A DNA stretch of 64,000 bases from Escherichia coli. Lineage in GTDB: Bacteria > Pseudomonadota > Gammaproteobacteria > Enterobacterales > Enterobacteriaceae. This document shows positions 39,672-41,166 of the stretch, in pieces. The position numbers were made by a program, and so were the translations under genes. A model generated the notes under the pieces. That model was not told the DNA's origin, searched no databases, and was given only the letters and a program-made list of their open reading frames with translations. Within the stretch, counting starts at the first letter, position 1. Each line of letters begins with the position of its first letter. The stretch lies in the NCBI RefSeq assembly GCF_030013595.1, contig NZ_CP122768.1. One strand, 5' to 3'.

Positions 39672-40337
39672 TCAAACAAAACCTGCCGCTTTCCTGCGTT
39701 CATATTCCTGTTTCAGCAACTCAATTGGAGTTGGCCCCGACGGGCGTTCTGGTGCTGCCAGTTGCCTACGGACGGGTGGAACACTCAGTCCGTTACCAAC
39801 ATGCTTTGCCCATTTCGCTAGTTGCCGTTCTGCAAGCCGTTTTAACTCCCCTTCGGTCATCTGGCGCTCAATCCCCTTTGAACGCAGCTCGAGACAAATG
39901 TGATACAGCACAGGCTGAGACCACGGGTATTTATCGCTTCCGTCGTATCGCCAGGACTCGTTGCGCCAGCGTCGGTACTCCTCCATCACGTTATCCACCG
40001 TCAGACCAAATGGATTTGCCCCGCTCTCCGAAATCAGCGCCACAAACTCAGCCAGGTCCGGAGGCCATGTTTCACCCGCCCGGCAGCGGTCCATGCACTG
40101 GCGGCAGACCTGCCGGATTTGCTGCTCAGTCATCGCGCCAATCTGTGCAATCCAGAGCTTCGAAGGTGCGGCCCCGTTCTTCTGGGTCCAGCGGTTCGAA
40201 TAAACCTCCCCCATGAGTTCCCACAGCTTCCAGGCCGTTTCCGTCGCTGATAAATCCGTTTTCACGTTCCCACTGCTCACGTGCTGCCCGAATTTCCTGA
40301 ACTGCCCGTGATGCGGTGCCACCTGGTGCTGCTGCAT
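39672..40337 (-). CDS. replication protein P-like (helicase loader)
   Basis: Central and C-terminal region resembles lambda P (FVA…, YPWS…, RINRGE-like region); start uncertain because of overlap with the O ORF. Confidence 0.65.
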   Translation of the reverse strand: MQQHQVAPHHGQFRKFGQHVSSGNVKTDLSATETAWKLWELMGEVYSNRWTQKNGAAPSKLWIAQIGAMTEQQIRQVCRQCMDRCRAGETWPPDLAEFVALISESGANPFGLTVDNVMEEYRRWRNESWRYDGSDKYPWSQPVLYHICLELRSKGIERQMTEGELKRLAERQLAKWAKHVGNGLSVPPVRRQLAAPERPSGPTPIELLKQEYERRKAAGFV

Positions 40338-41166
40338 GGTTTACCCCCTTGCTGACTGGTTTAACCTGTGCCCTGACGTGATTTACGTGACGGGCGAATT
40401 TCTGCTCCCACTGAACCTGCGTGAACACTTTGCCCTCATCGCTCCAGTAATCCCGGAATGCGGCAAGTTCAGCAGGTGTAAATTCCGGCTCCGGCAAAGC
40501 CATCCCCCACAACGCAGCCCGTCGTCGAAAATCCCGTGACGGATGCCAGCTATCGGTCATCGGAAATTTTCCGATGGGTTCGCTCAGGCCATCCAGGAAT
40601 ACGGGTGGCACTGCCTGTAACGACAAAACTTCCTGCTCACTGGTCGGAGCACTCTCGCGTGCGTTATGTGTGGGGTTTAGATCTTTGGGTTCCTTTGGGT
40701 TCCGTGATCCGTTTTTGGGTGTCTTTGATGGAAAATTTGGGTGTCTTTGGTTATTTTCCATGCAGCTAAGAGTTCCGTTTTTGGGTCTGTTTTGTGCTGA
40801 AACATAACCATTTTCGGTACTGTTTTTATTAACAGTACCAATTTTACCCACCTTTAAAGACTCCCGTTTTTGGGTGTATTCAGGCTCGGCAACACTTTCT
40901 TCTACACCGATAAGTCGGTACACCACAATTTGCTTTGTTCTGCCTTTTCTCTCACCGGTATCAACAATTAACCCAATCTCCATCAGGTGTCGTAAGCTGT
41001 CCTGCACAGTCTTTTTGTTCAGTTCCGTTACTTCTGCCAGTGCAGATACAGACGGGTATGCACACAAATCGGCACCGCACATATCAGCAAGCCAGGTCAA
41101 TACTGACTTACTGGATGAACTGCCGGTTTTCACCTTTTTAGCCCATCGTAGTGCATCGATACTCAT
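40126..41166 (-). CDS. replication initiator O-like (N-terminal HTH origin-binding domain)
   Basis: Track ORF 40126-41241; start placed at MSIDALRWAKK; iteron array lies inside the gene. Confidence 0.65.
   Translation of the reverse strand: MSIDALRWAKKVKTGSSSSKSVLTWLADMCGADLCAYPSVSALAEVTELNKKTVQDSLRHLMEIGLIVDTGERKGRTKQIVVYRLIGVEESVAEPEYTQKRESLKVGKIGTVNKNSTENGYVSAQNRPKNGTLSCMENNQRHPNFPSKTPKNGSRNPKEPKDLNPTHNARESAPTSEQEVLSLQAVPPVFLDGLSEPIGKFPMTDSWHPSRDFRRRAALWGMALPEPEFTPAELAAFRDYWSDEGKVFTQVQWEQKFARHVNHVRAQVKPVSKGVNHAAAPGGTASRAVQEIRAAREQWERENGFISDGNGLEAVGTHGGGLFEPLDPEERGRTFEALDCTDWRDD
40670..40880. repeat. candidate replication origin: iterons (tttgggt-type repeats) plus AT-rich inverted repeat inside the O-like gene
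   Basis: Repeated …ctttgggttcc/gtttttgggtgtc… motifs and palindrome ggtactgtttttattaacagtacc; lambda ori lies inside O in the same manner. Confidence 0.55.

Follow-up and report, generated by a model that had tools for sequence, protein, structure and literature searches.

How does the replication initiator gene of a lambdoid prophage come to share some 70 codons with the gene of its helicase loader, and are both reading frames used there? The question is raised by a stretch of 64,000 nucleotides (nt) from Escherichia coli, here called the window, in which all coordinates are counted. Its minus strand carries an O-like replication initiator gene (40126..41166) and a P-like helicase-loader gene (39672..40337), and a preliminary description had noted an overlap of about 210 bp, with the O-like frame open to 40126 and the P-like frame open from 40337. 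These coordinates are exact, the two frames being jointly open over 40337..40126, which corresponds to 212 nt or 70 codons. As explanations, the same description had offered initiation of P at an internal Met codon, genuine dual coding, or a frameshift mutation or sequencing error that fused O to extra sequence. We consider it probable that this Rac- or PPompW-type prophage has a genuine 212-nt overlap of its O-like and P-like genes, which are read in different frames, with P starting at 40337, because both frames are open in all relatives, the start and stop signals are conserved, the constraint is frame-specific and the homology of P extends into O, which makes dual coding the best supported of the three.

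The O-like gene encodes 346 amino acids (aa) from a likely start at ATG 41166 to the stop codon TGA at 40128-40126, and the same limits are found in the PGAP annotation of a 99.9%-identical genome. The full P-like open reading frame (ORF) encodes 221 aa between the first ATG at 40337-40335 and a stop at 39674-39672; its N-terminal stretch reads MQQHQVAPHHGQFR...ATETAWK, and a TAA in the P frame (40343-40341) stands directly ahead of the first ATG. The dual-coded segment (40126..40337) comprises the last 70 codons and the stop codon of O together with the first 70 codons of P, the P frame being +1 relative to O. The O stop codon (40126..40128) is made up of the third base of P codon Thr70 and the GA of Glu71. 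It is spanned by ATGACTGA, which also holds Met69 of the P ORF (40131..40133), and a further internal ATG encodes Met42 (40212..40214); these are the two internal Met codons that had been pointed out near 40133 and 40214. The Shine-Dalgarno (SD) sequence of P, AAGGGGGT (40343..40350), lies 5 nt upstream of ATG 40337, and the same bases encode Lys-Gly-Val of O.

In one sequence, an overlap of this kind is not beyond chance. A stop-free run of at least 70 codons in the +1 frame was found inside 43% of the 74 long ORFs in the window and, when the partner protein was kept fixed, the P frame of the window alone had a chance of 0.90 of being open and the O frame one of 0.26, so that significance can come only from the comparison of homologues. 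For this comparison, 331 loci of the P family were anchored on the invariant motif W..KNG, giving 210 unique sequences that fell into 29 clusters at 85% nucleotide identity. All 210 unique loci had a P frame open over 44 or more codons ahead of the anchor Trp, the upstream gene was in the same relative frame at 209 of them, and the O stop lay at the identical place (+62 nt from the anchor Trp) in 192, despite the different residues (E, D, S or N) that P has at position 71. A randomisation test, performed like the analysis of start signals on the 28 enterobacterial clusters having an upstream initiator gene, fixed the P protein of each lineage and reshuffled its codons according to the genes' own usage. 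Under these conditions, the O frame stays open to the observed stop with a probability of 0.03-0.35 per lineage; 6.6 open lineages were expected and 28 of 28 were observed, corresponding to 10^-19.7 if the lineages are independent and to 10^-5.8 for the 7 deep clusters (clusters below 65% identity). The P-synonymous sites are well mixed between lineages (e.g. CGC10/CGG10/CGA5/CGT2), and the lineages are therefore reasonably independent at these sites. The total lack of T at stop-capable P-synonymous sites was discarded as an argument, since it is circular when the region is defined by its first stop, and the randomisation test was used instead.

The two frames are not constrained in the same places. 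Substitutions were expressed as observed substitutions per mutational opportunities. In the 5' part of the overlap (40257..40337, P codons 1-27), 18/63 were synonymous in O and nonsynonymous in P, 4/39 were nonsynonymous in O and synonymous in P, and 10/123 were nonsynonymous in both frames, indicating that O is constrained and P nearly neutral; the bases there are dictated by the conserved tail motif of O (..SRAVQEIRAAREQWERE..). The 3' part (40129..40256, P codons 28-70) gave the respective values 5/83, 19/74 and 8/186, i.e. rates of 0.06 for O-synonymous, 0.26 for P-synonymous and 0.04 for doubly nonsynonymous changes, and here P is constrained, O is nearly neutral, and the bases are dictated by the conserved helical N-terminal block of P. 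Purifying selection thus acts in each frame within the overlap, on O in 40337-40257 and on P in 40256-40129. In the E. coli lineage, the variable sites are mainly third positions of O codons down to about 40251 and third positions of P codons from 40250 on, and this switch lies well upstream of both internal Met codons. Judged by motif conservation, both frames are under selection at the same codons over only about 10 codons (LEAVGTHGGG in O, AWKLWELMGE in P). Low diversity in the overlap was dropped as a signature of double constraint, since diversity is already low in the 90 nt upstream and high only farther upstream, where the O types are mosaic. Apparent covariation among the last residues of O (DW-x versus DR-F) was put down to shared ancestry and set aside.

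The homology of P likewise reaches far into the O gene. The P gene sits immediately downstream of a phage initiator gene, and its product matches Pfam PF06992 'Replication protein P' with 63 bits (cut-off 26) over residues 56-188 and phrog_109 'P-like helicase loader' over residues 19-220 (E=1.1e-62); no NCBIfam model matched P. A search of the Protein Data Bank (PDB) with the P-family profile A1 retrieved 8v9t 'Helicase loader' (E=3.8e-6) and 8v9s 'Replication protein P' (E=6.1e-6), the alignment covering lambda P residues 84-202, which is the structurally solved region, with an hhalign probability of 91.7%. AlphaFold2, run with a 20-sequence alignment, confidently predicted helices at P residues 25-46, 48-54 and 60-67 (pLDDT about 84-87), whereas residues 1-27, where the product is variable, had a pLDDT below 50 and are predicted to be disordered. 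Position 1 of PF06992 corresponds approximately to residue 29 of the P ORF, and the 153-aa version of P that starts at Met69 begins only at profile position 50; a start at Met69 would cost P three helices and about 49 of the 162 Pfam positions. In lambda P, 37 residues precede the Pfam domain, which is comparable with a P start at 40337. The block AW.LWE.MGEIYSNRW..KNG..PS.LWIAQIG (P-ORF residues 36-68) is among the best conserved between genera (44-79% identity), and the conserved helical block as a whole (residues 28-68) lies inside O and wholly upstream of Met69. The conserved block, the predicted helices, the Pfam limits and the frame-specific substitutions together indicate that P begins upstream of residue 36 (40232) and that the stretch read in both frames measures at least 107 nt.

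Databases disagree about where P starts, and four versions were found (records L001, L002, L003 and L084-L086; proteins P0001-P0040). PGAP in E. coli and the phage records let P start at Met69 (153 aa, with an 8-nt overlap at ATGACTGA), DDBJ records of Shiga toxin (Stx) phages at Met83 (140 aa), and PGAP in Salmonella, Citrobacter and Klebsiella at the equivalent of Met42 (177-181 aa), while older GenBank entries and other gene callers give a P of 212-223 aa, including a 221-aa 'replication protein'. The preliminary description had recommended searching for ribosome-binding sites ahead of the candidate starts, and in the window a strong SD was present only at 40337: the duplex energy with the anti-SD sequence was -11.9 kcal/mol for ATG 40337, the strongest of the candidates, versus -4.2 for Met42, which is weak, and -3.1 for Met69, which amounts to none. 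Each of the 28 enterobacterial lineages had an ATG at a distance of 40-50 codons ahead of the anchor Trp, and in nearly all of them it was preceded by GGAGGT, GAGGT or GGGGGT with a gap of about 5-7 nt, with energies mostly between -7 and -14 kcal/mol that usually made it the strongest candidate of its lineage. The O codon that supplies the 'AT' of this ATG always ends in T (CAT, AAT or GAT), for which randomisation gave a probability of 0.34-0.58 per lineage, or 10^-10.6 for independent lineages and 10^-2.3 for the 7 deep clusters. No candidate start other than the equivalent of 40337 was common to all lineages, and one lineage (L160) had none between it and Met42. On these sequence features, ATG 40337 is the most probable start of P. 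GTG 40265 (Val25), which lies at the frame switch of constraint, was rejected as a start codon because it is GCG in one close relative, is missing in most lineages and has a weak SD.

The arrangement is not limited to enterobacteria. In a tblastn search against phage genomes, 124 Vibrio phage records matched P residues 1-132 or 38-132 with about 30% identity. In the Vibrio phages D62, pA2SJ1, 199E37-1, D173 and 1.214.O, an ATG-initiated ORF in the P frame begins 188-230 nt before the stop of the O-like gene and both frames are open in all five lineages; in D62 the first P ATG lies exactly 212 nt from the O stop, which has the same position as in the window. The O tails of the Vibrio phages carry the same motifs (..AAAR....G..MG.DGG....D..(E/Q).W), and the annotations of these phages likewise place the P start downstream. 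SD sequences are weaker there than in the enterobacterial lineages. The Vibrio phage loaders resemble the P of the window in adjoining lambda-O-like genes, in their N-terminal halves, to which the similarity of about 30% to P residues 1-132 belongs, and in the long overlap, but their C-terminal halves differ, and D62 and pA2SJ1, the two that were scanned, gave no PF06992 match. From the description in PMC11087808, these ORFs may be phage relatives of the VdhL1/2 loaders treated there. 

A start of P farther downstream would shorten the overlap, and both internal Met codons have been annotated in this role. If P started at Met42 (ATG 40214), the overlap would measure 89 nt and the 41 open codons upstream would be a by-product of O composition. 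This is a rather improbable reading, even though the conservation of Met42 reaches at least 90%, it is the first residue of RefSeq proteins of 177-181 aa, some lineages have a strong SD ahead of it, and the P frame upstream of Met42 is nearly neutral, its openness alone not being significant. The motif A-W-x-L-W-E directly upstream of Met42 is conserved in all genera, with W39 invariant in alignment A2 including Vibrio, and a Met42 start would halve the predicted helix 25-46. The substitution bias of the P-frame type holds ahead of 40214 already, in 40250-40221, Leu takes the place of Met42 in Vibrio phage D62, and the SD of Met42 is weak in the window compared with that of ATG 40337. A Met42 start would still be real dual coding. 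Initiation at Met69 (ATG 40133) by termination-reinitiation at ATGACTGA would instead leave an overlap of 8 nt and make the 68 open codons upstream a matter of chance. The position of Met69 at the O stop has the look of a classic coupled start and stop, PGAP and GenBank annotate it, and +1 open runs of such length are common in single sequences. We nevertheless regard this start as very improbable: codon 69 encodes Met in 17 of 30 lineages and Leu in the other 13 (it is CTA in Vibrio phage D62), P residues 36-68 upstream of it are strongly conserved across genera, purifying selection in the P frame sets in from about 40256, and the product would be without the three confident helices and Pfam positions 1-49. 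By analogy, deletion of residues 9-86 abolishes the function of lambda P (PMC3640518). A minor short isoform of P from Met69 may exist besides the longer product. The suggestion that P is initiated at 40133 or 40214 is thus mirrored in annotations but disagrees with the conserved block upstream and with the Leu codons at position 69.

Alternatively, the long O tail could itself be the aberration. In this case, a frameshift or error, for example in the run of five G at 40344-40348, would have extended an ancestral O whose end lay directly ahead of the P ATG; removal of one G would indeed give AAG GGG TAA and terminate O 3 nt ahead of that ATG, a coincidence that looks attractive. The region is, however, present at 85-99.9% identity in PPompW and Stx2a prophages of Shiga toxin-producing E. 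coli (STEC) as well as Rac-SA53; of 5,426 complete E. coli genomes, 1,322 contain it within this identity range, and the overlap segment is full-length in 1,253. Among 70 unique homologous DNA sequences aligned (85-99.8% identity), the length of the G-run AAGGGGGT and the reading register were constant in all 70, no frame-breaking indel was found, and the sole indel near the P start measured 3 nt. The O tails of the aligned versions all end in ...DW(R/C)DD. In other lineages, the spot of the G-run reads GGAGGTAAC, without a homopolymer, and O tails are kept as protein motifs across three O types and the Vibrio phages. With the register intact in the 70 homologues and both frames open in the 210 loci, the proposed fusion of O to extra sequence is refuted, and an explanation by frameshift or error is hardly credible. 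Homologues in which O ends and P begins without overlap at a corrected indel were looked for and not found, the sole apparent case being P0107. This protein (385 aa; L336, ENA ERZ1331313 tig00000001) was rejected as a natural in-frame O-P fusion because it comes from a Canu 'tig' long-read contig in which O is shattered by indels; it begins at the end of the DnaT domain of O, takes in P, continues into the gene behind it and is an indel artefact. A programmed +1 ribosomal frameshift in the overlap, yielding an O-P fusion instead of or besides a separate P, would fit the +1 position of the P frame, and phrog_15931 (482 positions) matches O at 163-347 and P at 281-482, as if there were fused ORFs among its members. 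We consider such a frameshift highly improbable, since no slippery motif is conserved across lineages, the conserved SD and ATG favour independent initiation of P, and the fused database proteins examined were a deletion derivative (P0084) and the indel-ridden assembly P0107. P0084 (333 aa, from a Logan assembly) arose by an in-frame deletion, which connects a DUF1376-DnaT initiator, read up to ...RRRAALWGAALPE, directly with P at about residue 104 (SGANPFGL...); it is probably a decayed prophage replication module. Positions 1-28 of phrog_33198 match both P residues 42-69 and O-tail residues 43-70, and both phrog_15931 and phrog_33198 seem to hold fused or frameshifted ORFs across the overlap.

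Several observations weigh against a genuine overlap of 212 nt with P starting at 40337. The openness of the P frame is weakly significant, with 20.8 of 28 lineages expected to be open and 28 observed (10^-0.8 for the 7 deep clusters to 10^-3.9), and the lineages are not fully independent, so that the extreme p-values are upper bounds on significance. The first 27 codons of P are nearly neutral in the P frame, and the last 40 or so residues of O are almost neutral at the amino-acid level, including flips between Arg and Trp. Conserved Gly-Gly(-Asn) and Asn/His-Ala residues in O could have produced the SD and the ATG as a side effect, and no clear SD precedes the first ATG of Vibrio phage D62 (-3.5 kcal/mol). 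Met42 hardly varies and is preceded by a good SD in a few lineages (-13.4 kcal/mol in L089, -11.4 in L181), and it may serve as a second, internal start of P. Translation of both frames is deduced from sequence comparison and structure prediction.

The O-like protein consists of an N-terminal region resembling a helix-turn-helix (HTH) domain, a linker encoded by DNA with putative iterons, a DnaT-like domain that binds single-stranded DNA (ssDNA) and the 70-aa C-terminal tail that is encoded in the overlap. Residues 201-267 match the Pfam DnaT family PF17948 with 64 bits (cut-off 25), the NCBIfam DnaT model is matched with E=2e-26, yet under its equivalog cut-off, and the N-terminus reaches 20.8 bits with HTH_36, under the cut-off of 25. 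Over residues 1-298, O matches phrog_1032 'replication initiation protein' (E=1.9e-89). O and P are ordinary members of the DnaT-domain initiator and lambda-P loader families. Between the HTH and DnaT domains, the O gene contains three copies of a 24-nt direct repeat with the core ACCCAAAAACGG at 40702, 40768 and 40857 (within 40684-40880, minus strand; spacing 66 and 89 nt), alongside a 14-nt repeat family, CAAAGACACCCAAA. These repeats resemble the origin iterons that lambda and phi80 carry within their initiator genes. On two metagenome contigs (L090 and L091), a 189-aa P-like gene of the same family stands alone beside PTS or LysR genes, with no initiator upstream, and is either a remnant or a domesticated copy.

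The closest relatives of the module are found in Rac-SA53 (as 'ydaU/ydaV'), PPompW and the STEC Stx2a prophages, with 90-99.9% DNA identity, and the same module makes up the pairs annotated as 'DnaT-like ssDNA-binding domain protein / replication protein P' in about one quarter of complete E. coli genomes. The difference lies in annotation only, as P is recorded from Met69 or Met83 and the overlap as 8 nt or none. Lambda O/P and phi80 15/14 share with the window the order of initiator and helicase loader and probably also the origin repeats inside the initiator gene, but overlap by only 4 nt (ATGA) instead of 212, as does EC.W1-9, and where P is of the lambda type its overlap with O amounts to just 4-29 nt. 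Although the P of the window matches PF06992 and the C-terminal two-thirds of the family profile align to lambda P 84-202, the N-terminal third of the window P is not alignable to lambda P, and the window O has a DnaT-like domain in place of the C-terminal domain of lambda O. Phage phi80 gp14 and its relatives share only the C-terminal half of P (residues 93-221, about 50% identity). The same O tail, in turn, occurs on at least three unrelated O types (HTH plus DnaT, DUF1376 and a type of 390-414 aa) wherever a P of the window type follows. Because the tail is shared by unrelated O types and the phi80-type relatives have only the C-terminal half of P in common, 'O tail + P' appears from these comparisons to behave as one exchange unit. 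In E. coli KOr019 (L087, 1001-2579), the same DnaT domain is followed by a different tail (...DELDWNNTDWIEGVWDEINSRTSQ) and a lambda-type P of 258 aa with a 29-nt overlap, and DNA homology to the window stops at about 40371, a recombination junction 34 nt before the P ATG. In lambda itself (L335, 984-1092), the O frame is open for 35 codons beyond its UGA, into P, and the end of lambda O, ...LDLTNTDWIYGVDL, faintly resembles the end ...LDCTDWRDD of the window O tail. A read-through product O' of lambda is mentioned in an old report, as cited in PMC3640518.

Known long same-strand overlaps include A/B/K and D/E of phiX174 and Rz/Rz1 of lambda. They share with O/P that one stretch of DNA is read as two proteins in different frames, but O/P is neither nested nor de novo; instead, an ancient gene and its functional partner are interleaved, 3' end with 5' end, and either half of the overlap is dominated by one of the frames. 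For long same-strand overlaps in phages, two proteins in different frames with asymmetric constraint have been described (PMC8227390). In the literature that we searched, no description of the O/P overlap was found, and Brezellec 2017 and the VdhL study of 2024 treat both families without mention of it; the proteins and long same-strand overlaps as such are already known.

We propose that the early rightward transcript would be translated through O to the stop at 40126, and that P would be initiated independently inside O, in the +1 frame, from its own SD (AAGGGGGU) and AUG 40337. The first 27 or so codons of P would then form a variable, probably disordered leader whose bases are fixed by the O tail motif (SRAVQEIRAAREQWERE...LEAVG.HGG), and the last 43 or so codons of O would be fixed by the conserved helical N-terminal block of P (AWKLWELMGEVYSNRWTQKNG..PSKLWIAQIG). 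Over the 10 or so codons around LEAVGTHGGG / AWKLWELMGE, conserved motifs of the two frames coincide. By analogy with lambda O and P, the O tail and the P N-terminus may contact each other and be held together by the overlap as one recombination module. Lambda O has been reported to interact with the loader P (PMC11087808), and the lambda P deletion that abolishes activity (PMC3640518) covers residues 9-86. More tentatively, the overlap might be functional rather than a packing accident: it could co-encode mutual recognition surfaces, the C-terminal tail of O and the N-terminal helical block of P, so that mosaic recombination cannot split a tail from its cognate loader. 'O tail + P' would then be the unit that is exchanged and attached to various unrelated domains for origin binding, among them HTH-DnaT and DUF1376, over a range that extends from E. 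coli prophages to Vibrio phages and may include the domesticated VdhL loaders. We think of this as a possibility with the odds somewhat against it.

For annotation, the P of a module that occurs in about one quarter of complete E. coli genomes, including those with STEC Stx2a and PPompW phages, would be 41-81 residues short in the records of 153, 140 and about 180 aa compared with 221. The short records lose the conserved N-terminal block of three helices, and structure predictions, family models and expression constructs derived from them would lose it too; a correction of the annotated P start sites is called for. With regard to evolution, the O/P pair would represent a deeply conserved case in double-stranded DNA phages in which two old, functionally coupled genes are interleaved over about 200 nt with the constraint divided between the frames, and it may be used to test methods for finding overlapping genes. 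Mechanistically, the analogy with lambda makes the O tail and the P N-terminus the probable specificity contact of the initiator-loader pair. The overlap would also account for the position of the recombination junction between replication modules, shortly before the P ATG, and it may bear on how phage loaders move between hosts and become domesticated.

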